Positions 884 to 49,311 of a stretch of DNA of 64,000 nucleotides are shown piece by piece. Position 1 is the first letter of the stretch. Each line of letters begins with the position of its first letter. The position numbers and the translations under genes are program-made. This stretch comes from Desulfobulbaceae bacterium DB1 (lineage in GTDB: Bacteria > Desulfobacterota > Desulfobulbia > Desulfobulbales > SURF-16), in the NCBI GenBank assembly GCA_001914235.1, contig MQUF01000003.1, positions 448,225 through 512,224 of the forward strand, in the 5' to 3' direction. Below the pieces are notes generated by a model. The model had not been told where the DNA came from. It did not search any database and was given only the letters and a program-made list of their open reading frames with translations.

Positions 884-1195
884 ATGATGGAATTACGAAA
901 TATTACCAAATCATACCGGGATCAACGGATCCTGGCTGATGTCAGTCTCGAAATACGGGAACGGGAAATGGTCAGCATCATGGGCAAATCCGGGCCAGGC
1001 AAAAGCACTCTGCTCGCCGTTATGGCAGGGCTGGTCAAGCCCGACTCCGGGCAGGTGCTCCTCTGTGTCTCCATTCTTTTCGACTTTTTAATCTTCATCC
1101 TTGGTGCGGCTTGTTTTTTTCTGCTCTTCCTGGCGGTGAGCTTTTTTTGTTTCCGTCGGATAAAGAAAATAAAACCGGATGAGTTTGCGGCGTAA
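884..1195 (+). pseudogene. Truncated ABC transporter ATP-binding protein (N-terminal ~60 aa only)
   Basis: [60 protein letters not shown] carries an intact Walker A. After about nt 1063 the frame becomes a non-homologous hydrophobic tail. No Q-loop, signature motif or Walker B is found in any frame downstream. Confidence 0.6.
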
Positions 1196-1527
1196 CCAAG
1201 CCGCGTGCCGCTTCTACACCTCAAATCATCCGGACTCTCAAGTGGTTTCCCTTTATTGGGGCTTCTCTCGTTTGCCAAAGGGGAGTATTCCATGCTGACA
1301 GCCGACGGAACGGCAATCTATTCCGTTGTTTCCGGCGCATGCACCAGGCCGAAGCCTCCCTGCACTCTGCTCATCCGCCATTATCGCCTCGGTTGTGCCC
1401 ATCGACTCGCATTCCCGTCGTTGCGCTCTTTTTGAGCGATTTTTCTGTTTTTGCGCTAAAATGAAAAAAACCGCCCCCCCGAACCTTTGCTCGGCGGCAG
1501 TGTCTTAAGGTGATAATGGAGAACAAT

Positions 1528-3651
1528 ATGAAAACACTTACAAGTATTCTTGTCTTTTTTTGGTTGTTGAGCCTCGGGCTTCCTGCTGCTTCCCATGCCG
1601 CCGATCTCGGCGAATTACGGCTCAGCCTTATTGAAGGGGATGTCCAGCAATGGAATATTGAGACAAATGAATGGATACCGGTTACCATCAACATGCCCCT
1701 TTACGAAGGGGACCGCCTTTGGATTCCCGAAGGAGGCAAAGCGGAAATCCAGGTCAGAAACGGATCATTTGTCCGCCTCAACGCCTATAGCTCCCTTGAA
1801 ATCCTGCGCTCCGACGGCAATTCACTCCAGGCATATCTGTCCGAGGGACAGGCATATCTCAACTTCAGCGGCCGCAAGGACACCATGCTGCAGCTTGATA
1901 CGCCGTTTTCTTCGACGCGTGCCTATGAAGGGACAAAGTTCCTGGCCGATGTGAACCGCACGGGTGAAACGAATATCGCTGTTTTAAGCGGCAAGGTCTT
2001 TATCGACAGCAGCCAGGGAAACGCTGAATTGATCAGCGGCCAGGAATTTTCCTTGGGTGATAAATATGCCAACATCGCTCCAATCGGCAGGCAGGGTGCC
2101 TGGGAACAATGGAACAGGGAGCGGGATTGGAAAATTGCCGACCGCCGGTACAACGATGAGTATCTGCCTGAGGAACTGAGTCCCTACGCCTCGGATTTCG
2201 ACCAGTACGGCAGGTGGGTGCACGTCAATGAATACGGCCATGTCTGGACGCCGACCCTTGCCGTGTCCTCCGGCTGGTCACCATACAGCCAGGGCCGCTG
2301 GATCTGGCGCGGCGGCGATTACGTCTGGATTTCCTACGAACCGTGGGGATGGGCCCCCTATCATTATGGACGCTGGTCGTTTGTTTCGTCAATCGGCTGG
2401 TGCTGGATTCCCCCCCCGCGAGGAGCCGTTTACTGGGGTCCCGGTTATGTCGGCTGGGTCTCGACCCCGAATTATGTCGCCTGGGTCCCGCTCGCCCCCG
2501 GAGATACCTACTACGGGTACGGCGATTACGGGCCTTCCAGCATAAACATCATCAACATCAATGTCCATAAACACTATCCAAGACGTTCCTACAGGAATCT
2601 GCGGGCAAGAAACGCGGTGACCGTCATCCATCATGACACCTTTTTGCATGGCAGGCGTCATGACCTGAAGGTGAAGGAAAACCCTTTTCTCAAGGATGTC
2701 CCCCATGTCGGCCGACCGACAATTCGCCCGGCAAAGGAAACCTATGCCCCGGTTCAGCGAAACATTGACGAATCAAAACGCCCGCCCGAATACATCCGCA
2801 AAACCAAGGTGACAACGATTCAGCAAGAGCGCCCCCTGGTGAAAGACAGAAACCTGCGGGTGCTTCAAACCGAGAGCTTCGAAAGGAGCGGCCGGGAATG
2901 GAAACGCGAACGCGGCCTGCCGTTTGACGAGGCGAAACAGGGGCAGGAAATAAAGAAACGCGGTGATTCGGGGAAACAGCAGGAAACAATCAAAAATCGT
3001 GAAATGACGGCGCCTTCGCCCTTACAGCAGCAAGAACGAACCAGGGAAGAACAGCGCACCGGCGGCGAACCAATTCGTCGCGAGCCCGATTATTCCAAGC
3101 AGCAACAGCTGAAACAAGGCGACAGCCCCACCCGGGATAACGCTTTGCGAGATCAACCGGGAAACGGCAAGAAGAAAGGACCAGGCCCTGAACTAAAAAA
3201 ACAGGATACCCCTGTCGTTGCGCCACAGACTTCCGGCAAGGCGCGAACTCCGGAAAGAGCGGAAAAGGCACCTGCTCCGGCTGTCGGCAAACCGATCACC
3301 GAGAGCAAACCGGCTCCGCTTCCCCCTCGTGTGCGCCAGGAGGAGAACCAAGGCGGAAAACAGGACCCAGCTCCTCATGGACAAGGCAGTCCGGATTGGA
3401 ACACTCATCCTCAACGAGGCCGGCAACCGATACCACCAGAGGTCAGACAAAATTCCGGTCGTGAGCGACCCTCCGACAACGCGATAACGGCCCCGGCACC
3501 ACGGCCGGGGCAAGCTCCCCAACCAGGTCAGGGAGACGCAAAACGGGGGAAACAGCCCTTCGGCAAAAACAAAAAAATTCCCCAGACTGAAGAAGGGACC
3601 GAGGCACAGGAAAATCTTCTCCTGTACCCGGCAGGCCCACCGATTCAATAG
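1528..3651 (+). CDS. Secreted FecR-domain / DUF6600-like protein with a long Pro/Gln/Lys/Arg-rich tail
   Basis: GGAG lies 6 nt before the ATG at 1528 and a signal peptide is present (LVFFWLLSLGLPAASHA). The Trp/Tyr/Gly-rich core (YGRWVHVNEYGHVWTP..WGWAPYHYGRWSF..GWCWIPP) is typical of the family. The C-terminal ~350 aa are low complexity. Confidence 0.7.
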   Translation: MKTLTSILVFFWLLSLGLPAASHAADLGELRLSLIEGDVQQWNIETNEWIPVTINMPLYEGDRLWIPEGGKAEIQVRNGSFVRLNAYSSLEILRSDGNSLQAYLSEGQAYLNFSGRKDTMLQLDTPFSSTRAYEGTKFLADVNRTGETNIAVLSGKVFIDSSQGNAELISGQEFSLGDKYANIAPIGRQGAWEQWNRERDWKIADRRYNDEYLPEELSPYASDFDQYGRWVHVNEYGHVWTPTLAVSSGWSPYSQGRWIWRGGDYVWISYEPWGWAPYHYGRWSFVSSIGWCWIPPPRGAVYWGPGYVGWVSTPNYVAWVPLAPGDTYYGYGDYGPSSINIININVHKHYPRRSYRNLRARNAVTVIHHDTFLHGRRHDLKVKENPFLKDVPHVGRPTIRPAKETYAPVQRNIDESKRPPEYIRKTKVTTIQQERPLVKDRNLRVLQTESFERSGREWKRERGLPFDEAKQGQEIKKRGDSGKQQETIKNREMTAPSPLQQQERTREEQRTGGEPIRREPDYSKQQQLKQGDSPTRDNALRDQPGNGKKKGPGPELKKQDTPVVAPQTSGKARTPERAEKAPAPAVGKPITESKPAPLPPRVRQEENQGGKQDPAPHGQGSPDWNTHPQRGRQPIPPEVRQNSGRERPSDNAITAPAPRPGQAPQPGQGDAKRGKQPFGKNKKIPQTEEGTEAQENLLLYPAGPPIQ

Positions 3652-9183: not shown

Positions 9184-9273
9184 TGGCGGAGAGGGTGGGA
9201 TTTGAACCCACGGTACCCTCACGGGTACACCGGATTTCGAATCCGGCTCATTCGGCCGCTCTGACACCTCTCC
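9184..9273 (-). tRNA. tRNA-Ser (anticodon CGA), class II with long variable arm, CCA encoded
   Basis: Reverse complement is GGAGAGGTGTCAGAGCGGCCGAATGAGCCGGATTCGAAATCCGGTGTACCCGTGAGGGTACCGTGGGTTCAAATCCCACCCTCTCCGCCA. It has a 7-bp acceptor stem, anticodon stem CCGGA/TCCGG with loop TTCGAAA, and T-arm GTGGG-TTCAAAT-CCCAC. Confidence 0.92.
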
Positions 9274-18643: not shown

Positions 18644-21100
18644 CTAAAAACGAATGATCGCCCCGGCCCCCCAGCCGAAATCGGAATGCCATTGGCCGAT
18701 CAGGGAAAAACTTTTCGACAGCATGTACGTGAGGCCCGCCTTGCCTTCCCATTGTGCGGCATGGGTATCATATTCGGCTTCACCGATCAGGGCCAGGCGC
18801 GGGGTCAGGGCGAATTCCTTGTCAAAGGAAAAACGACCGCCGCCGTCGCTGTCCAGCCAATAGCGGGACTCAATCAGCAGCGGCAGCAGCCAGGTGACAC
18901 CCACAACTCCACGGGAATGTTCCGTATCGCTGCCCTGCCCCAGCATATCGAACCCGGCAAACACGGTGAAAAAACGATTGATATACCTGTCCCAGGACAG
19001 AAATCCTTCCCACTCATTTTTATCGACACGCTGCCAGCCCGACTCCCATTCCGCTGAAAGGGTGTTGCGGGTGCCGGCAGCCGTTAAAAAAACCTCGGCC
19101 ATGTTGCTTGTCAACGCAGCCTCGCCCCAGGAGTGCCACATATCAATGTAAAGTTGCGGACGGATGGCGGCAACCTCGTCCGGCATCACAAAATTATCGT
19201 AGTGAAGCAGGCGGGCCATGCCGCTTTCCATGTGGTAAAGGAGATGGCAGTGAAAAAACCAGTCTCCGGTTTCGTTGGCGTCAAATTCGATAACCGTGGT
19301 GGACATGGGAGCGACATTGACCGTGTGTTTCAGCGGCGCATGATCGCCCTGTCCATTGACAACCCGGAAAAAATGGCCGTGCAGATGCATGGGATGATGC
19401 ATCATGGTGCGGTTGATCATAATGAAACGGACAATCTCGCCCTGGCTCACCGGAATGACGTCGGTCTCGGAAAGCGCCTGGTTGTTCATAAACCAGACAT
19501 AGCGTTCCATATCCCCGTCCAGGGTTAGCCGGATTTCCCGCACCGGCCTGTTGCCGGCAAAGGCGGTTGCGGAGACGGCCCGCAATTTTTCATAAGGCGG
19601 CCATGGACGGCTCTGATCCATGCCGTCCATGGCAAGACTGCCGGCCGAGGAAACATCGGAAGCCATCGGCCGGAAATCAGCGCCGTATTTTTTGCCGTTC
19701 CGTTCACCCCGGTCTCTTGTCCTTTGCTGTTGCGGCGCCATGTCCCCCATGTCATGACCGGCGTGGCTGACAACAGGTTGCGCCGCTTCACCTTCCCCCC
19801 TGCTTTCCGTGGTCGGGGCGGCATGACTCTCCATACCATGCCCCGTATGCGGGGAACCCGCGCCATGATCCATGCCGGGCATAACCGGTTTCTCCATCAT
19901 CTCCATCCGGTCCATGCCATGCCCCACATGACCCATGTCACCCATGTCATCCATGCCGCCCATTGCCGTCATGCCGGGTTTGTCGAACATGCCGGCGGAG
20001 ACCGCATCATCATCCATGCCCATTGAGGCCGCCGGGTTCAAAGCGAACAGGGTGCCCAGGCTGAGATCGCCCATGGCATGATAGAGATTCGGTTTCGGCA
20101 CATCGGGCGCGGGACGGGAATCACCAGTGCCGAGCCACACCGAGGTGAAACCCGACCCATCGTGGGCGGTTGCCCGCAATTCGCAAGCGCCTTTTTGCGG
20201 AACCGTGATGAGCACGTCATAGGTCTCCGCAACGCCGATGAGCAAACGTTCCGTTTCCACCGGTTCCACATCGATACCGTCGGCCGCGATGATCCGCATG
20301 GGGCCGCCGGCGAATTCAAGGTGAAAAAAGGTGGTGGAGGAGCCATCAATGATTCGCAACCGGATTGTTTCTCCCGGTTGGGCGTCAAGATGCATTTCCG
20401 TGCTGCCGTTGGCAAGAAAACGGTCATAGGCGACATCGGCGATGTCCATGGCCGGCATGCGCCCCAGCTCGCGCTTGAAATAATCGGCAAGCATGCCGAG
20501 ACGAATGGCGCCGACTATACTTTGCGCGCTGCCCTTTTCAACGGCAAACCACTCGCTGCCGCGTTTCAGGGTGCGGATAATCTGGTGCGGGTCTTCATCG
20601 GCCCAGTCGGAAAGCAGGATCACATAATCACGGTCAGCCGGGAAACGGGGAACAGTGGGCTCGATGACAATGGCGCCGTACACGCCGCGTTGCTCCTGCA
20701 GACCGGTATGGGAGTGATACCAGTAGGTTCCGCTCTGCCGAATGGGAAACTCATAGGTAAAAGTAGTACCCGGGGCGATTGGCGGAAAGCTGACATACGG
20801 AACCCCGTCCATGCCGGGGGGCACCAGGATGCCGTGCCAATGAAGAGAGGTTTCGACAGCCATTCTGTTGCTGACGTGAATACGGGCGAGATCCCCCTCC
20901 CGGAACCGTAATACCGGACCGGGAATGGAGCCGTTGATGGTCATCGCCGTGGTCGGCGTGCCGGTGATATCGACAGCCTGAGAGGCAATTTCAAGGTGGT
21001 ACTGACTGGTTTTCGCATGCACCGTTGCCAGACCGAGCAGGACCATGATGACGGTGATCACGGGTTGCCATAAAAAGAATATGCGTTTTTCCCGGGGCAT
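18644..21100 (-). CDS. Multicopper oxidase (CopA-like) fused to a C-terminal CopB-like outer-membrane domain
   Basis: Cu-site motifs HWHG, YWYHSH, HPMHLHGH and HCHLLYHMESGM, plus a Met/His-rich linker. The last ~190 aa resemble the CopB barrel (..GVVGVTWLLPLLIESRYWLDSDGGGRFSFDKEFALTPRLALIGEAEYD..) and end in a terminal Phe. The start is set to ATG 21100, after AAAAAGGAGA. Confidence 0.85.
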   Translation of the reverse strand: MPREKRIFFLWQPVITVIMVLLGLATVHAKTSQYHLEIASQAVDITGTPTTAMTINGSIPGPVLRFREGDLARIHVSNRMAVETSLHWHGILVPPGMDGVPYVSFPPIAPGTTFTYEFPIRQSGTYWYHSHTGLQEQRGVYGAIVIEPTVPRFPADRDYVILLSDWADEDPHQIIRTLKRGSEWFAVEKGSAQSIVGAIRLGMLADYFKRELGRMPAMDIADVAYDRFLANGSTEMHLDAQPGETIRLRIIDGSSTTFFHLEFAGGPMRIIAADGIDVEPVETERLLIGVAETYDVLITVPQKGACELRATAHDGSGFTSVWLGTGDSRPAPDVPKPNLYHAMGDLSLGTLFALNPAASMGMDDDAVSAGMFDKPGMTAMGGMDDMGDMGHVGHGMDRMEMMEKPVMPGMDHGAGSPHTGHGMESHAAPTTESRGEGEAAQPVVSHAGHDMGDMAPQQQRTRDRGERNGKKYGADFRPMASDVSSAGSLAMDGMDQSRPWPPYEKLRAVSATAFAGNRPVREIRLTLDGDMERYVWFMNNQALSETDVIPVSQGEIVRFIMINRTMMHHPMHLHGHFFRVVNGQGDHAPLKHTVNVAPMSTTVIEFDANETGDWFFHCHLLYHMESGMARLLHYDNFVMPDEVAAIRPQLYIDMWHSWGEAALTSNMAEVFLTAAGTRNTLSAEWESGWQRVDKNEWEGFLSWDRYINRFFTVFAGFDMLGQGSDTEHSRGVVGVTWLLPLLIESRYWLDSDGGGRFSFDKEFALTPRLALIGEAEYDTHAAQWEGKAGLTYMLSKSFSLIGQWHSDFGWGAGAIIRF

Positions 21101-21174
21101 TGGCGTCTCCTTTTTTGCCGGTCGCGCTTCCACAGACATGATGAATCAATCCTACATATTCACCGGGCAAAAAG

Positions 21175-21804
21175 TCAAAAAAATTCCCGGCCGGATTTCC
21201 CATGGGCATCAAAACGCTCCATGGACTGCCCTCGGGCAATGATACTTTCCAGCTCGGAAACCTTTTTCGCGCAGATACCGACAATGTCCGCCATCATTTC
21301 GGAAACCTGATCATCCTCGCCCAGAAGAGTTTGCGCTTTGCGCAGCAAGTTTTCCCCTTGGGCCAGGTAGCTCTCCATATCTTTATGCAACAAGGCCCGG
21401 TTCTTCTGCTTCTGCTGCTCCGCATCTATCACCGGCAGCAGCCGCTGAATGGAAACCTCCACCAGCACATCCCGCGGAATGTTCCGTTGCCGGGCAACCA
21501 GGTCCAGCACCTCCAGGGAGCGCCTGCTGAGCACAAAGGTCTTCTGCCGCCGCTCCCCGTTTTCCGGGCTGTACTCATGGGCCTTTTTCGCAACTTTATC
21601 AAGCACGCTCACATCCTCGACAAGCTGATCGAACAGGGATTTCTGCTTGAGATTAAGATGCGCGGCAACGATGCCCAGAAGGTCAATGATATGGATCGGC
21701 AACCTGAAGGTGGCCCGCACCGACTGCTTTCCCTTGAGCCCTTCCGCGGAAATAAACAATCCCGCATATTCGGAAGAATTTTCCCCGTCTTTTGTTTTTC
21801 CCAT
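21175..21804 (-). CDS. Hypothetical protein, predicted helical/coiled
   Basis: GAGGGAGG precedes ATG 21804. Length is 209 aa. No family recognised. It lies 74 nt upstream of the oxidase gene on the same strand. Confidence 0.55.
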   Translation of the reverse strand: MGKTKDGENSSEYAGLFISAEGLKGKQSVRATFRLPIHIIDLLGIVAAHLNLKQKSLFDQLVEDVSVLDKVAKKAHEYSPENGERRQKTFVLSRRSLEVLDLVARQRNIPRDVLVEVSIQRLLPVIDAEQQKQKNRALLHKDMESYLAQGENLLRKAQTLLGEDDQVSEMMADIVGICAKKVSELESIIARGQSMERFDAHGKSGREFF

Positions 21805-22000
21805 AATGACCTCCCTCACAGGACCAGTTATCTTATATTACTATATTTATTTTTACATAAAAAGTAATTAATGAGAAAAAATCATAAAAAATAAATATGC
21901 GACATTGACAACACTCTTGATGTAATTATTTTTTTATCAAAGAAAAGCGCAGCAAAAAAAGTCTGATCCCAAAAATGAAAATAAAAAAAGGAGGTACACT

Positions 22001-25172: not shown

Positions 25173-25911
25173 CCCCCATCCCCGTGGACGGGAACAACGA
25201 AGCATGAAACTTTAAAAGAAATAGGCCATAGTTATCTTCTTAATTTTTCTCGACAAAAAAAGAAGGAGGATAACCATGTGATCAACGGCAATTATTTTCC
25301 CCGTTCCCGCGACAATTAAAATTCCAAAAATCGGATTTAAGCTGCCCACTGTGACCGAATAAGGACAAATCAGGTGAAGCTATTATTTTTTTGTGCTATT
25401 ATAAAAATTGTTCACTATCTTCACCAGCTTCGTCTTTTAGAGGGGGTTTTCTCAGAAACACTCACAGATGTCGAATCCGCGTTTTTCATCACTTTGTGAG
25501 TTTCCGCCCTTCATGAGGATATACCCCGATTTATCCGAATCTTCCGACGGTCGCTTAACCGCGAACTGATCTCTTTATATACCCCGAGGGAATTTCTTTG
25601 GGGAAATTTATCATTCAAAGTGCATCTCCGCACCGGCACTTTCTCGCTTACAGGACTGGAGCAATTTTCATTTCCGGCTGCAACCCTGCGAAAGCAATGT
25701 ACTCCACGGTTTCCGGAAGACGGATTACTCTTCCTTGACGTTTGTTGTCCCGCAAATCTTCGCCAGGCGATGGCTCTTTAGTCGCATCACGGATTTCGGC
25801 GCGTCAAGAGTCATGGCAGAACAGTTTTCATCCGGGCATCACCAATCAGACTCGACGCCGAGGTCCGGCCGCCGGCCTGAAGAACATTCATCTCTTATGA
25901 GGAGCAAAACC

Positions 25912-27099: not shown

Positions 27100-30000
27100 A
27101 TGAAACTAATTACCTTTTCCATTAATGCAGTCGAATTGACGGTAGCCGGCGGCACCACCATTCTGGACGCCGCGGAAAAAATCGGCATACCCATACCAAC
27201 CCTTTGCCGTGTAGCGGACAAATCCGAGGCAGACTGCGGCATCTGCGCAGTGGAATGCGAAGGCAGCGAAGAATTGCTTCGGGCATGCAGCACGCAGGCT
27301 GCAGCCGGCATGGTCATCCGCACGGACACCGAAACGGTGAAGAAATACCGGCAAAAGCAACTGACTCGCCTCGCGGCAACCCATTTCGGCGACTGCAAGG
27401 CTCCCTGCAATCTGACCTGCCCCGGCCAGATTAATGTCCAGGGTTATATCGCCCATGTCGCAAAAGGACAGTATGAAGAGGCGGTTCGCCTGATCATGGA
27501 ACGCAACCCCTTTCCCTTTTCAGTGGGGCGTGTCTGCCCCCGTTTCTGCGAAACCCGCTGCCGGCGCATTCTGGTTGATGAGCCTGTTTCCATCAACCAC
27601 CTGAAACGATTTGTCGCGGACTGGTGCATGGCGAACAAGATTGATCTCAAAATCCGCCGCCGATCGCTGACCGGAAAAAAAGTGGCGGTGGTGGGCGGCG
27701 GCCCGGCGGGGCTCACCGCCGCCTACTTTCTGGCCGAAAAAGGTCACGCGGTTACGGTGTTTGAGGCCAATGACAAACTTGGCGGCATGCTGCGCTATGG
27801 CCTGCCGGAATACAAGATTCCCAAAAAGATCCTGGATTACGAAATCAGCAGCATTCTGCGCCTTGGAATCTCAGTACAGCTCAACCAGCACTGGGGGAGA
27901 GACTTTACCCTGGCAAGCCTGAATGAGCAAGGTTTTGACTCGGTGCTGCTGACCATCGGCACCACCGTTGACCAGCCTCTTGAAATTCCGGGTGCAACCC
28001 TGAACAATGTGCTGCCGGCTACCCGGTTTCTCCACATGGTCAATGAAGAGGTGGGAAGGGATTACGGCCGAAGAGCCGCTGTGATAGGCGGCAACAATGT
28101 GGCCATGGAAACGGCCCGCTGCCTGCTCCGCAACAATGTGGACCAGGTGACCATCATCTATCCCCGGGCGCAGCTCGAGATGCCGGCCAACCAGCGAAAC
28201 ATCCGTGAGGCGGAAAGGGAAGGAGTTCAGTTTCTACTCATGGCCTCCCCCATTCAGATCATGGAAAAAGACGGCGGTCTCGAGCTGGAACTGATCCGCA
28301 TGAAACTGGGAGAGGCTGACGCCAGAGGAATCCGCCTGCCGGTGGCCATCCCCGGATCCGCCAATATTCTCAAGGTGGATACGGTAATCTATGCATTGGG
28401 ACAGTCGGCCTGCGGGGAAGAGGGCATTCCCGGTGACCGGCAGGCGGACGACCTTGAATTCACCCCCGGCAACATTATCAAGGCCAACCCGAGAACCTCG
28501 CTTACCAATCTTGCTGATGTTTATGCCGCAGGCGATGCGACAAGCGGCCCCCGATCCGTCATCCAAGCCGTTGTTTCAGCCCGGCGAGCCGCGGAAAACA
28601 TCCACGCCGCACTTATGGCGGTGAGTAAAGAACCGGCCGACAGCCGTTTTAATTTTTCCCGCGGCCGATCATTTGATGACGTTGACATGCGCAACTTCGA
28701 CGGGGTCAAGGTGCGATTGCGGGAAAAAATGCCGTCACGGCCGCCGGAGCGATGCATCCAGGATTTCGACGAGGTCAAACTCGGTTTCACTGAACAGATG
28801 GCCAGGCGGGAGGCGGCACGATGCCTTTCCTGCGGCTGCACCGCTTTTGACCGGTGCGATTTCAAGCGACTGTGCATCGAAAATTTCGTTGATCCGAACA
28901 AAACCGGCATGGGGACGTCCCCGCGCTACAAAAAGGATCTGTCCCATCCTGTCATTGCGGTTGATCTCGACAAGTGCGTCTTCTGCCGGCGCTGCGTCAA
29001 TTCCTGCCAATACGGGGCCCTGGAGATGTCAGCCGCCTCCCTTGACAACGAAGGCCGGCCCCAGGAAATACGTCTTCGTTTCAATGAAAAATGCACCCAC
29101 TGCGGCCAATGCGTCGACAGCTGCTCAACCGGCGCCCTGAACAAAAAAGACATGTCCGTGCCGATCACGGGCGAAGCGACACGGGAGATACGCACCACCT
29201 GCCCTTACTGCGGGGCCGGCTGCCAGATGCTGCTCAAGGTGAAGGGCAATACCATCATGGAGGTGGAGTCGGAGCCTGATCTGGCACCCAATTACGGCGC
29301 GCTCTGCGTTAAGGGACGCTTTGCCTTTAACTTCATTCATCATCCGGACCGTCTGACTCGCCCGTTGATCAGGCGGAACGGCCAGCTGGTGGAGACCTCC
29401 TGGGAAGAGGCCTTAAATCATGCGGCAAAACGTTTTTTTGATATCAAGGCGATGTATGGCGCGGACGCCATTGCCGGATTTTCCTGCGCCCGGGCAACCA
29501 ACGAAGAAAATTATCTGATGCAGAAATTCATGCGTACAGCGATCGGCACCAACAATATCGATCATTGTGCACGACTTTGACACGCGCCAACCGTGGCCAG
29601 TCTGGCCATCACTTTCGGCAGCGGCGCAATGACAAACTCCATTGCCGATGCAGTCAACGGCAAAACCGATCTCTTTCTGATGATCGGCAGCAATCCCGAC
29701 ACCAGCCATCCCACCATCGGCCTGCGCATCCACCAGGCCGTTGATCGAGGAGCCAAGCTGATCGTCATCGATCCGCGCAAAACAAAACTTGCCGAGCGGG
29801 CCGATCATTGGCTGCGCATTCTTCCCGGTACCGATGTGGCAATGCTGAACGGACTGATGCACATCATCATCGAGGAGGACCTCTGGGACAAGGAGTTTGT
29901 CGCGGAGCGTACCGAAGATTTCGATGAGCTGCGCACCCTGGTGAAAAAATATCCGCCGGAGATGGTGGCCCGCATCACCGGCATCACCGCTGAGCAACTG

Positions 30001-31236
30001 CGCCGTGTGGCCCGCATGTATGCCGCTCCGGGCCGGCACGCCATATACCACGGGATGGGAATCACCCATTACACCACCGGCACCGATCGAGTTAAATCCA
30101 TCGCCAACCTGGCGATGCTCTGCGGCAAGGTCGGGATGGAGGGCGGCGGCTGCAACCCCCTGCGCGGACAGAACAACGTCCAGGGCGCCTGCGACATGGG
30201 CGCCCTGTTCAACACCCTGCCGGGCTACGGCGGGCTGGATGACGACGACCTGTTCGATTGCTACGAAAAACTCTGGAATGTCAAACTGCCGCGGCGTCCC
30301 GGCAAACCCGCCACCGAGGTGTGGGACAACATCATGAAGGGAGACATCCGCGCCCTCTACATCTTCGGGGAGGATCCGGCCATTGCCGACGCCAATATCG
30401 GTCATGTGCGTCAGGCACTGGAGGAAGTCGATTTCCTGGTGGTGCAGGATATTTTTCTCACTGAAACCGCCAAGGCAGCGGACGTGGTGTTTCCTGCCGC
30501 CTGTTTCGCCGAGAAAGACGGCACCTTTGCCTCCACCGAACGGAGGGTGCAGCGGGTGCGCAAAGCGGTGGATCCACCCGGTGATGCGAAACCGGACTGG
30601 CGGATCTTCTGCGAACTGTCCCGTAAGATGGGTTATCCCCTCGAGTACGAAAGCGTTGAGCATATATTTCAGGAAATCGCTTCCATTCTCCCCCAATACC
30701 GGGGTATAAGCTATAAACGGCTTGATACCGTCGGTCTGCAGTGGCCGGTGCCTGATGCGGACCATCCAGGCACCCCGGTGTTGCATATCGGCAATTTCAC
30801 CCGGGGCAAGGGCTTATTTGTTGCCGAGGACTATATCCCGCCGCAGGAACCGGTAAACGATGAGTACCCGTTGCTCTTTACCACCGGCCGCCATTATGCC
30901 CGGTACAACTTCAGCAGCATGACCGGCAAAACCCTGGAGATCGATGATATCGCGCCCGAGGCACTGGCTGAGATCAACCCGAAAGACGCCGAACAGATGG
31001 GAATCAACGAAGGCGACATATTGCGCCTGACATCGCGGCGCGGCGCAGTCACCATCAAGGCGACCATTACCGATCGAACCCAGCAGGGCACCGTTTTCAC
31101 CACCTACAACTACCATGACACGCCGGTCAACCTTCTTACCCTGGATGCACTGGATCGTTTGTCCCGTACCCCGGAATACAAGCTCTGCGCAATCAGAGTA
31201 GAGGTGGTTGAGAAAAAAACATCTTGTGAGAGATAA
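27100..31236 (+). CDS. fdhA: Selenocysteine-containing formate dehydrogenase alpha subunit fused to 2Fe-2S ferredoxin, GltD-like NAD(P)H-FAD oxidoreductase and 4Fe-4S domains (TGA 29578-29580 read as Sec)
   Basis: Track ORFs 27100-29580 and 29593-31236 are in the same frame and are joined by ..[32 protein letters not shown], the FdhF/FdhA Sec motif. N-terminal 2Fe-2S region (CRVADKSEADCGICAVEC). GltD-like dinucleotide folds (VAVVGGGPAGLTAAYFLA, AAVIGGGNVAME). Two CxxCxxCxxxC ferredoxin motifs, then the MopB cluster CPYCGAGC. Confidence 0.9.
29578..29620 (+). promoter_or_regulatory. SECIS element for the FdhA selenocysteine codon
   Basis: Hairpin TGGCC-AGTCT-GGCCA begins 16 nt after the U of UGA. 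G and U sit at positions 23 and 24 from the UGA, the same positions as the SelB-contacted G23/U24 in the E. coli fdhF apical loop. Confidence 0.75.
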
Positions 31237-47524: not shown

Positions 47525-47851
47525 ATGAAACCGAAAAATATTTTTGCCGATATCCCCGCGAAACTTCAGGATGAACATTTTGAGGCCGTTCTCCAAACCA
47601 ACGCACTCCTGCTGGAACGGATCATCTCCAGGGGGCATGCCACTCCTCCCGGCCAGTGGTATGATCAGGATCGGGATGAGTGGGTCTTGCTGCTTGCCGG
47701 AGGTGCGGCGTTACGCATTGATGGGCAACAAGAACTCATTGTCCTGCGTCCCGGGGATCACACTCTCCTGCCCGCCCGTTGCCGCCACCGGGTCGAGTGG
47801 ACTGACGGGAAAACGGAAACCATCTGGCTGGCGCTTCATTACAAAAGCTGA
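47525..47851 (+). CDS. Cupin-domain protein
   Basis: 108 aa. EWVLLLAGGAALRIDG..LRPGDHTLLPARCRHRVEW shows a cupin beta-barrel pattern. Confidence 0.7.
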   Translation: MKPKNIFADIPAKLQDEHFEAVLQTNALLLERIISRGHATPPGQWYDQDRDEWVLLLAGGAALRIDGQQELIVLRPGDHTLLPARCRHRVEWTDGKTETIWLALHYKS

Positions 47852-48738
47852 AACAGCAGCGGCAGGGTGACAAAAGAAAGAAAGATCCCCAGTCCCACCA
47901 GGGCGGCGGTCAGCTCCGGGGCAAGCCCCGCCATGATGGCAAGTGCCCCGGCTGAAACCATGGGCGGCATTCCCGCCTCAAAAACGGCTACCCGAGCCGC
48001 CTCGCTATCAAAACCAAAGAGCCGGCAGACGGCAAGAGCCAATAAGGGCGCCAGCACCAGTTTCATCAGCAGCCCGGCTGACATCGGCTTCAGCACCTCC
48101 GGCTTTAAGCGCAGGGTCAGCTGATATCCCACGGCAATCATGACCACCGGCACCAGGGTTGCGGCCAGTGCCTGCAGCAGGGCGGTCACCGCACCCGGAT
48201 AGGAAAAAAAACGCAGGGCAAAGGCAACGAGCAGGGCAAGAAACGCCGGGAAGGTGGCGATTTTTTTGACCACCGAGCTCACGGTGGGCTTGTCCCCTGT
48301 CTGTCCGTAGAGAGCAATGATCAGCGACCCGTAGGTGGCAAGGCAGAGAAAGGAACCGAGCTGATCATACAGCACCGCGTACGGGATCCCCTGCTCCCCG
48401 AAAAAGGCCCGCACCATGGGAATGCCGAGAAACGAGGTGTTGCCGAGGGGTACGAGCAGCAGCAGGGCGCCCAGAGTCCGGTTATCCCAACGGCAGCAGC
48501 GGGAGAACAGGAAAACCAGGGCGGCGGAAGAAACGAGCATGAACCAGGGCATCAGGGCGGTGACGAGGAGCTCCCGGGAAAACACCAGCTCAGGCACCTT
48601 GATCAGCACCAGGGCGGGCAGCGAGACATAAATGACAAACAGGTTCAAAACCTGGGCGGTGTTGTCCGGAAACAGGGGCAGACGCCGCAGACCCATGCCG
48701 ATCAGCAGAAAGGATATGGTGAGAATGAAGTTTTCCAT
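47839..48738 (-). CDS. AEC (auxin efflux carrier) family transporter
   Basis: 299 aa, polytopic. The N-terminus MENFILTISFLLIGMGLRRL..LNLFVIYVSLPALV is typical of the family. Confidence 0.85.
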   Translation of the reverse strand: MENFILTISFLLIGMGLRRLPLFPDNTAQVLNLFVIYVSLPALVLIKVPELVFSRELLVTALMPWFMLVSSAALVFLFSRCCRWDNRTLGALLLLVPLGNTSFLGIPMVRAFFGEQGIPYAVLYDQLGSFLCLATYGSLIIALYGQTGDKPTVSSVVKKIATFPAFLALLVAFALRFFSYPGAVTALLQALAATLVPVVMIAVGYQLTLRLKPEVLKPMSAGLLMKLVLAPLLALAVCRLFGFDSEAARVAVFEAGMPPMVSAGALAIMAGLAPELTAALVGLGIFLSFVTLPLLFQLL

Positions 48739-48756: not shown

Positions 48757-49227
48757 CTATTTCCCTTCCTGCTCCTGGAGAAGATCCCCCAGGTATTGGG
48801 CGGACTCGCCCACCAGTTCAACGCAGATCCGGCGGCGGCCCTCGGGGTCGGCATAGTATTTTTTGACCTCTTCCCTGTTTCTCCAGTCCACCCGGGCAAT
48901 ATCGCAGCAATTGACGCTGCCGTGGTCTCTTGTCAATTCATCGAATTTTTTCATAAACTTATGACTGAGGAGCCACATGCGGGGATCTTCCTTTTCCTCC
49001 AGACTGCTCCTGCTGTAAAGCGAAGAGATCATCGCCACGGCGCCGAGCAAAATACCGCAGGCACCGCCCGAACCGGCGATGCCGCCGCCGAAAGCGCCCA
49101 CCGCCTTGACGGACTGTTCGTCCACTCGCCCTGCTTTTTCCTGGCCCACGGCAAGGATCGCCTGGCTTCAATGAAACCGTTTTGTAAAAAGTTCCACGGC
49201 CTTCAGCCGCATCTCTTCCGAATTCAT
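48757..49227 (-). CDS. C_GCAxxG_C_C family redox protein, candidate selenoprotein (in-frame TGA 49168-49170 at the first conserved Cys position)
   Basis: The track ORF (48757-49149) lacks the family N-terminus. Extending the same frame upstream gives ATG 49227, preceded by GAGGTG. The extension reads MNSEEMRLKAVELFTKRFH-TGA-SQAILAVGQEKAG... The family pattern here is F..G..C(S/A)(Q/E)(A/S)(I/V)L. GGACGILLGA and the later Cys residues follow. Sec decoding is independently evident in this window (fdhA). Confidence 0.6.
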
Positions 49228-49311
49228 ACTTCGCACCTCGGATATGTGTTGACGGGAGATTGGTTCATTGCAAACCGGCCAATGTACCGCATTCCCATCA
49301 TTCTGCCCAGC

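Follow-up and report, generated by a model that had tools for sequence, protein, structure and literature searches.

An in-frame UGA at the first invariant cysteine of a C-GCAxxG-C-C family protein of Desulfobulbaceae bacterium DB1 is very probably decoded as selenocysteine

In the 64-kb stretch of Desulfobulbaceae bacterium DB1 DNA analysed here (‘the window’), a gene of the C-GCAxxG-C-C family carries an in-frame TGA close to its 5' end. Is this TGA a stop codon, with the protein starting downstream of it, or is it read through as selenocysteine (Sec)? The mechanically generated list of open reading frames contains just a 130-aa piece starting at GTG 49149, and the best database match is the 130-aa ‘hypothetical protein BM485_04680’ of Desulfobulbaceae bacterium DB1, identical except for the start residue. 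When the minus strand is read directly, ATG 49227-49225 opens a frame of 156 codons that closes with the stop codon at 48759-48757, and the sole interruption of this frame is TGA 49170-49168, with 19 sense codons (MNSEEMRLKAVELFTKRFH) before it and SQAILAVGQEK... after it. As judged from the sequence, there is no ribosome-binding site (RBS) ahead of GTG 49149, and GAGGTG lies ahead of the upstream ATG (Table 1). An earlier sequence-only reading of this DNA had pointed out the upstream ATG with its GAGGTG and the in-frame TGA, as well as the read-through product with MNSEEMRLKAVELFTKRFH and SQAILAVGQEK... on either side of it; the coordinates are exact and the translation agrees with ours. The same reading had described the GTG-started frame as devoid of the N-terminal Cys helix and, accordingly, the 130-aa product has neither the first invariant Cys nor the first helix.

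Table 1. Features of the selenoprotein candidate locus and of the second Sec gene; positions are those of the window.
Feature	Position	Strand	Remark
Shine-Dalgarno GAGGTG	49234..49239	-	6-nt spacer to the true ATG; read directly from the sequence
Full CDS, 156-residue C-GCAxxG-C-C family protein (predicted selenoprotein), stop codon included	48757..49227	-	
UGA codon 20, predicted to be read as selenocysteine	49168..49170	-	homologous to the family's first invariant Cys
Best-supported candidate SECIS hairpin, UCCUUGCC / GUG loop / GGCCAGGA	49139..49157	-	exact register inferred
GTG, Val27 codon and apical hairpin loop	49147..49149	-	false public start of the 130-aa ORF
Cys57, second invariant Cys, in C-G-x-x-x-G motif	49057..49059	-	C57, G58 and G62 invariant in alignments
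Cys107, third invariant Cys	48907..48909	-	invariant alignment column
Cys135, fourth invariant Cys	48823..48825	-	invariant alignment column
AEC/Mem_trans permease gene	47839..48738	-	18 nt downstream of the selenoprotein gene
Sec-containing fused formate dehydrogenase fdhA	27100..31236	+	TGA 29578-29580, SECIS 29575-29633

The full-length protein belongs to the family. With codon 20 translated as Cys it scores 74.7 bits against PF09719 (C_GCAxxG_C_C; cut-off 27 bits), residues 18-147 matching profile positions 1-116, as compared to 59.9 bits for the 130-aa piece, the match of which begins at profile position 12. The TIGR01909 score likewise increases from 51.8 bits (130-aa piece) to 59.7 bits (codon 20 as Cys; cut-off 47.4), and the NF045669 score increases from 58.3 to 76 bits once the 26 upstream residues are added, although 76 bits is short of the 103-bit cut-off of this model (DVU_1555 family C-GCAxxG-C-C protein). 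Since the PF09719, NF045669 and TIGR01909 scores all rise, the family signal in the upstream extension is real. The four-Cys pattern of the family, C...G-C-(A)-x-x-G...C...C, is present as U20, C57-G58-I-L-L-G62, C107 and C135, with the Ala of the family's G-C-A motif being Ile in the DB1 protein. Replacing residue 20 by Ala lowers the score in each of the three NCBIfam models, by 4.9-6.9 bits. Over the extension, the consensus of full-length Cys homologues reads MxPEEMRxKAIDLFxKRFHCSQAxLAVGQEK. Among the best 43 matches, four are 129-133 aa long and span 76-83% of the query, and the remainder are 151-191 aa long, with Cys at position 20 in those aligned. The proposal that the TGA sits at the first invariant Cys of the family is thus borne out both by the profile match, which runs from position 1, and by the alignment of the Cys homologues. 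Separately, residues 24-108 of the DB1 protein give a weak, below-cut-off match to the Pfam domain DUF5714 (E=0.0076, 16 bits), and the two may be remotely related, sharing one helical fold.

We then surveyed orthologues, using one genome per species, which yielded 80 loci, mostly from Desulfobulbia, Syntrophobacteria or Desulfobacteria. The codon at the first Cys position is TGA in 35 and TGC or TGT in 44 of the 79 species representatives, one further locus being cut off. The DNA of three short orthologues (72-82% identity) has the same TGA, a conserved 19-codon frame from ATG and the same N-terminus. For Sec and Cys forms together, the start codon lies 19 codons upstream of the Cys1 codon in 68 of the 69 distinct sequences and 20 codons upstream in the remaining one, and in most of these sequences the homologous start is preceded by a purine-rich GGAG/GAGG element. 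In the TGA forms, the 18 codons that separate start and TGA have a dN/dS of ~0.16 (with dS saturated in many pairs), which points to purifying selection on the codons upstream of the TGA. In a neighbour-joining tree the TGA and Cys states are interspersed, and parsimony requires at least six Sec/Cys switches. The TGA carriers include MAGs of Desulfocapsa sulfexigens and the isolate Desulfogranum mediterraneum DSM 13871; the Cys carriers include Desulfobulbus species and D. japonicum, so that a single genus, Desulfogranum, holds both a Sec form (D. mediterraneum) and a Cys form (D. japonicum). With the TGA in 35 of 79 species and the upstream frame conserved, a pseudogene, a sequencing error or a truly shorter protein cannot explain the pattern. 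Some of the Cys forms nearest to the Sec forms, found in Syntrophobacteraceae (e.g. loci L030 and L037), retain most of the hairpin described below, a remnant that may reflect a recent Sec-to-Cys change.

Insertion of Sec at a bacterial UGA calls for a SECIS hairpin downstream of it. Numbering from the U of the UGA as 1, the relevant stretch is UGA AGC CAG GCG AUC CUU GCC GUG GGC CAG GAA. Straight after the UGA (49140-49166, minus strand), the motifs GCCAGG, CCUGGC and GCCAGG follow one another. This succession therefore allows three mutually exclusive hairpins, each of which is 91-93% paired over 30 TGA orthologues. In the 14-32 register, which starts 10 nt after the UGA, 91% of cells are paired. 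The minimum free energy (MFE) fold of 66 nt contains pairs 14-17/29-32 and 19-21/25-27 with the GUG loop at 22-24, the loop starting 18 nt after the UGA; in the 38-nt context of the DB1 sequence the MFE structure is a different fold, marginally more stable than the 14-32 hairpin. The DB1 stem has one U·C mismatch in 8 bp, which stems from the CUU Leu codon, and most orthologues have CUG for CUU, resulting in a perfect 8-bp stem, UCCUGGCC/GGCCAGGA. In the DB1 sequence the stabilities over the three registers are -8.2, -6.5 and -3.5 kcal/mol, and 28 of the 31 TGA forms have 14-32 as their most stable register.

The other two registers pair just as consistently. Positions 5-11 with 19-27, the hairpin that the sequence-only reading had drawn as GCCAGGC-GATCCTT-GCC(G)TGG(G)C, has 93% of cells paired in the TGA orthologues; it can indeed form, yet it is the least stable of the three and the best in just 1 of 31 sequences, so that as the SECIS we set it aside in favour of the better-supported 14-32 register. 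The third hairpin (5-10/15-20) is also 93% paired in the TGA orthologues. It forms alike in Cys forms with the same peptide (0.93 vs 0.91), and because it is formed equally in TGA and Cys forms we regard it as a by-product of the peptide sequence; furthermore, its loop is too near the UGA, and it too was rejected as the SECIS.

Over 45 nt, TGA forms and Cys forms are alike in overall folding energy (p=0.19), and we therefore used register- and codon-specific tests. To separate Sec-specific constraint from constraint on the protein, the comparison was limited to orthologues encoding the same L-A-x-G-Q-E peptide. Among these, the TGA forms make 7.6 of the 8 pairs and the Cys forms 5.9 (p=2e-5, uncorrected for phylogeny). 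The difference can be followed codon by codon (Fisher tests, uncorrected for phylogeny like the Mann-Whitney tests): Ala is GCY in 16/17 TGA forms vs 4/13 Cys forms (p=4e-4), Val is GUG in 14/17 vs 2/13 (p=6e-4), and Gly is GGY in 17/17 vs 2/13 (p=1e-6). The predicted upper stem and loop are thus built from synonymous sites that are fixed in TGA forms only. Pair 19-27 shows two G-C to A-U double changes among the 30 TGA orthologues; covariation in the 14-32 register does not exceed the shuffle background significantly (38/500 and 75/500), nor do the shuffle controls give significance for either of the other registers. RNAalifold returned a weak alternative consensus of -3.3 kcal/mol with no covariation. 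Searching 48900-49300 at E<=10, we found no match to an Rfam SECIS family, SECIS_3 (RF01989) included; on this target the gathering mode gave a tRNA only and the E-value mode a chance snoRNA only. The bSECISearch model expects the apical loop at 16-37 nt from the UGA, a range into which the 14-32 loop falls, and 14-32 is the only register with its loop (18 nt after the UGA) near the distance seen in the fdhA SECIS (19 nt, see below). On the strength of Sec-specific codon choice, stability and geometry, we place the putative SECIS, with moderate confidence in the exact register, at 49157-49139.

The window contains a second gene in which UGA is predicted to encode Sec. The fdhA product is a fusion of 2Fe-2S, GltD-like FAD/NAD(P) and 4Fe-4S domains with a molybdopterin formate dehydrogenase, and its TGA falls at a break in the molybdopterin profile, between positions 81 and 98. 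Downstream of the TGA come codons for H-A-P, yielding the motif U-H-A-P; a UHxP motif is given for FdhA in a 2026 review (PMC13188914). Rfam SECIS_3 matches the fdhA element with 41.7 bits (E=1.6e-8), in E-value mode only because the gathering score is higher, at 63. In its folded form a 7-bp stem carries a GUC triloop, which begins 19 nt after the UGA. The motif, the profile break and the SECIS_3 match agree with the earlier suggestion that Sec decoding in the window is evidenced by fdhA, and this predicted Sec-containing enzyme indicates that the genome decodes UGA as Sec. Two other ORFs considered as fdhA, 21819-18644 and 1183-3651, were rejected. The first of these corresponds to an 831-aa multicopper oxidase (18644-21139, minus strand), preceded in another frame by a 214-aa ORF (21175-21819, minus strand), both unrelated to the selenoprotein gene. 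Domain scanning of ten large ORFs and a tRNA search did not identify selA, selB, selC or selD in the 64-kb window; its one tRNA is a 90-nt tRNA-Ser(CGA) (9184-9273, minus strand), not tRNA-Sec. A crude scan of the window for a TGA followed by a hairpin recovered fdhA, a candidate at 25567 and six further matches. At 25567 (plus strand) a TGA is followed, at SECIS distance and within an open frame, by an 8-bp hairpin, CCCCGAGG-GAATTT-CTTTGGGG. The flanking translation looks non-coding, and we treat this candidate as a chance occurrence rather than a Sec gene.

What speaks for the TGA being a genuine stop is the public record: GenBank and nr annotate the gene and its orthologues in this manner (six entries, 129-136 aa), and the 130-aa ORF alone clears the PF09719 and TIGR01909 cut-offs. 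If so, the product would be the 130-aa protein initiated at GTG 49149, or else the gene would be a nonsense pseudogene, with the upstream frame a relic. Such a product would, however, be without helix 1 and the first invariant Cys and would be initiated at a GTG without an RBS in preference to an ATG that has GAGGTG; a relic would decay, which is at odds with the dN/dS over the 18 upstream codons; and the TGA is accompanied by an intact upstream frame in all 35 species, across the at least six Sec/Cys switches. We consider a genuine stop highly improbable. A TGC or TGT turned into TGA by faulty sequencing or assembly would be conceivable for a single window that apparently comes from a metagenome-assembled genome, but the identical codon is present in 35 independent assemblies, that of the D. 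mediterraneum isolate among them, which refutes this explanation and leaves it a negligible probability.

Read-through of the UGA by a near-cognate or mis-charged tRNA that inserts Cys or Trp would yield a full-length protein without selenium. Sequence tools cannot tell which residue is inserted, and the Cys forms of 44 species are evidently functional. Against this, SelB-dependent decoding is favoured both by the hairpin, which lies at SECIS distance and is under synonymous constraint in Sec forms only, and by the presence of fdhA as a second Sec gene in the window; Sec-independent read-through is inefficient in bacteria, and it would not explain why TGA has been kept repeatedly over TGC or TGT. 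We judge selenium-free read-through improbable. Decoding as Sec is, by comparison, very probable: the gene at 49227-48757 (minus strand) would encode a 156-residue cytoplasmic C-GCAxxG-C-C protein with Sec at UGA codon 20. This is what the sequence-only reading had put forward, namely a hidden selenoprotein in which Sec replaces a redox Cys, and it had named three observations that would count against it: homologues aligning without the upstream extension, the lack of a SECIS-like structure, and orthologues having a stop with independent start sites. Instead, the Cys homologues cover the extension, a SECIS-like hairpin with Sec-specific synonymous constraints is present, and the 35 of 79 species with TGA at the same codon share a homologous upstream start.

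Mechanistically, SelB and Sec-tRNA(Sec) would bind the hairpin at 49157-49139 as the ribosome reaches the UGA, resulting in Sec insertion, and Sec20 would then form a redox or metal-binding site with Cys57, Cys107 and Cys135. The structural evidence comes from a Cys homologue 65% identical to the DB1 protein, which is predicted to be all-helical (pLDDT 94), with the four conserved Cys/Sec positions at or near helix N-termini. In the PDB it has one significant neighbour, the split-Soret cytochrome c of Desulfovibrio desulfuricans ATCC 27774 (1h21, entitled ‘a novel iron centre’), with a Foldseek probability of 1.00 and a TM-score of 0.68 over the query. In HMM searches, E values of 0.01-0.03 were obtained for the GGI...CGALxGA motif and the vicinity of the last Cys. 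The identity is 18%, and while split-Soret cytochrome c has 247 residues and two c-type haems, the 156-residue DB1 sequence lacks the CxxCH motifs expected of a di-haem c-type cytochrome and has no signal peptide. The two have only the non-haem, iron-centre domain in common. The non-haem centre is reportedly Cys-ligated. The DB1 protein most likely serves in the cytoplasm as a small redox or metal-centre protein, and Sec20 would there take the place of a Cys thiolate. It is possible, though on balance doubtful, that Sec20 ligates an iron or iron-sulfur centre and that this centre is homologous to the ‘novel iron centre’ found in split-Soret cytochrome c. If true, these small proteins would be free-standing Sec-ligated Fe(-S) proteins, and the centre would have its potential or reactivity adjusted by the repeated Sec/Cys switches in Desulfobacterota (at least six in 79 species).

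The genomic neighbourhood is of limited help. The downstream AEC permease gene is probably co-transcribed with the selenoprotein gene. In a synteny comparison, linkage to the TrmO-like and AEC permease neighbours is conserved in the closest clade only, and since it is confined to this clade, synteny offers no family-wide functional clue.

The public entries retrieved for TGA orthologues are all truncated alike, at 129-136 aa, and nr entries are still in this state (136 aa for D. mediterraneum, 131 aa for ‘Desulfobulbus marinus’); gene callers probably repeat the false start in every TGA-bearing orthologue. The truncated entries would thereby lack the very residue that is most likely catalytic or metal-binding. 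The value of the result is mainly practical: it provides a corrected gene model, in which the false GTG start turns out to be the loop of the putative SECIS. In addition, the natural Sec/Cys series (Sec in 35 forms, Cys in 44, at least six switches, contrasts within a genus) can be used to study Sec retention. The family is also connected with split-Soret cytochrome c, by way of its iron-centre domain. We do not see a new kind of system here.

How does the DB1 gene compare with known systems? As a putative bacterial SECIS, its hairpin resembles the E. coli fdhF, bSECISearch and SECIS_3 elements in starting ~10-11 nt after the UGA, in having an apical loop that begins with G-U and sits 16-37 nt from the UGA, and in sharing the design of the fdhA element; these distance rules are those of the bSECISearch model and of the minimal fdhF SECIS. 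It differs in that its loop is just the 3-nt GUG, in having no Rfam match and in a register that covariation leaves unproven. Among curated models, the HUGP/GUXX-star fusion selenoprotein NF045501 has a homologous N-terminal half, with DB1 residues 4-125 matching positions 8-131 of the 236 in the profile; its H-U-G-P falls on H19-U20-S21-Q22. The score of the DB1 protein shifts by -5.0 bits upon the C20A substitution, by -4.7 bits upon H19A and by +7.3 bits upon S21G+Q22P. The DB1 protein is not a full-length member (37 bits vs a cut-off of 325): it has no C-terminal GUXX-star domain and has HUSQ in place of HUGP. As HUGP coincides with H19-U20, Sec at this position of the fold has therefore already been curated.

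Selenoproteins of the C-GCAxxG-C-C family itself have been described before. Zhang & Gladyshev 2007 (PMC1976440) report three genes for a Sec-containing ‘putative redox protein’, accompanied by SECIS-like hairpins, from the delta-1 symbiont, a deltaproteobacterium, of Olavius algarvensis. A 2022 review (PMC9312934) has C-GCAxxG-C-C (pfam09719) among the prokaryotic selenoproteins, and PMC13188914 distinguishes two C-GCAxxG-C-C subfamilies, forms 1 and 2, such forms being defined by a differing Sec position or motif and form 2 deriving from the GOS study of 2008. The DB1 protein is presumably form 1. Like the published members it has this domain and size, contains a single Sec that pairs with Cys in homologues, is encoded by a gene with a SECIS-like hairpin following the UGA, and comes from a member of the Desulfobacterota; unlike them, the DB1 gene and its 34 TGA orthologues appear only as truncated ORFs in the public records retrieved. 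Given that C-GCAxxG-C-C selenoproteins have been published since 2007, that NCBIfam names TIGR01909 ‘C-GCAxxG-C-C family (seleno)protein’ and that HUGP falls on H19-U20, the gene is almost certainly an unannotated member of a described selenoprotein family, and its truncation a fault of database annotation and not new biology.
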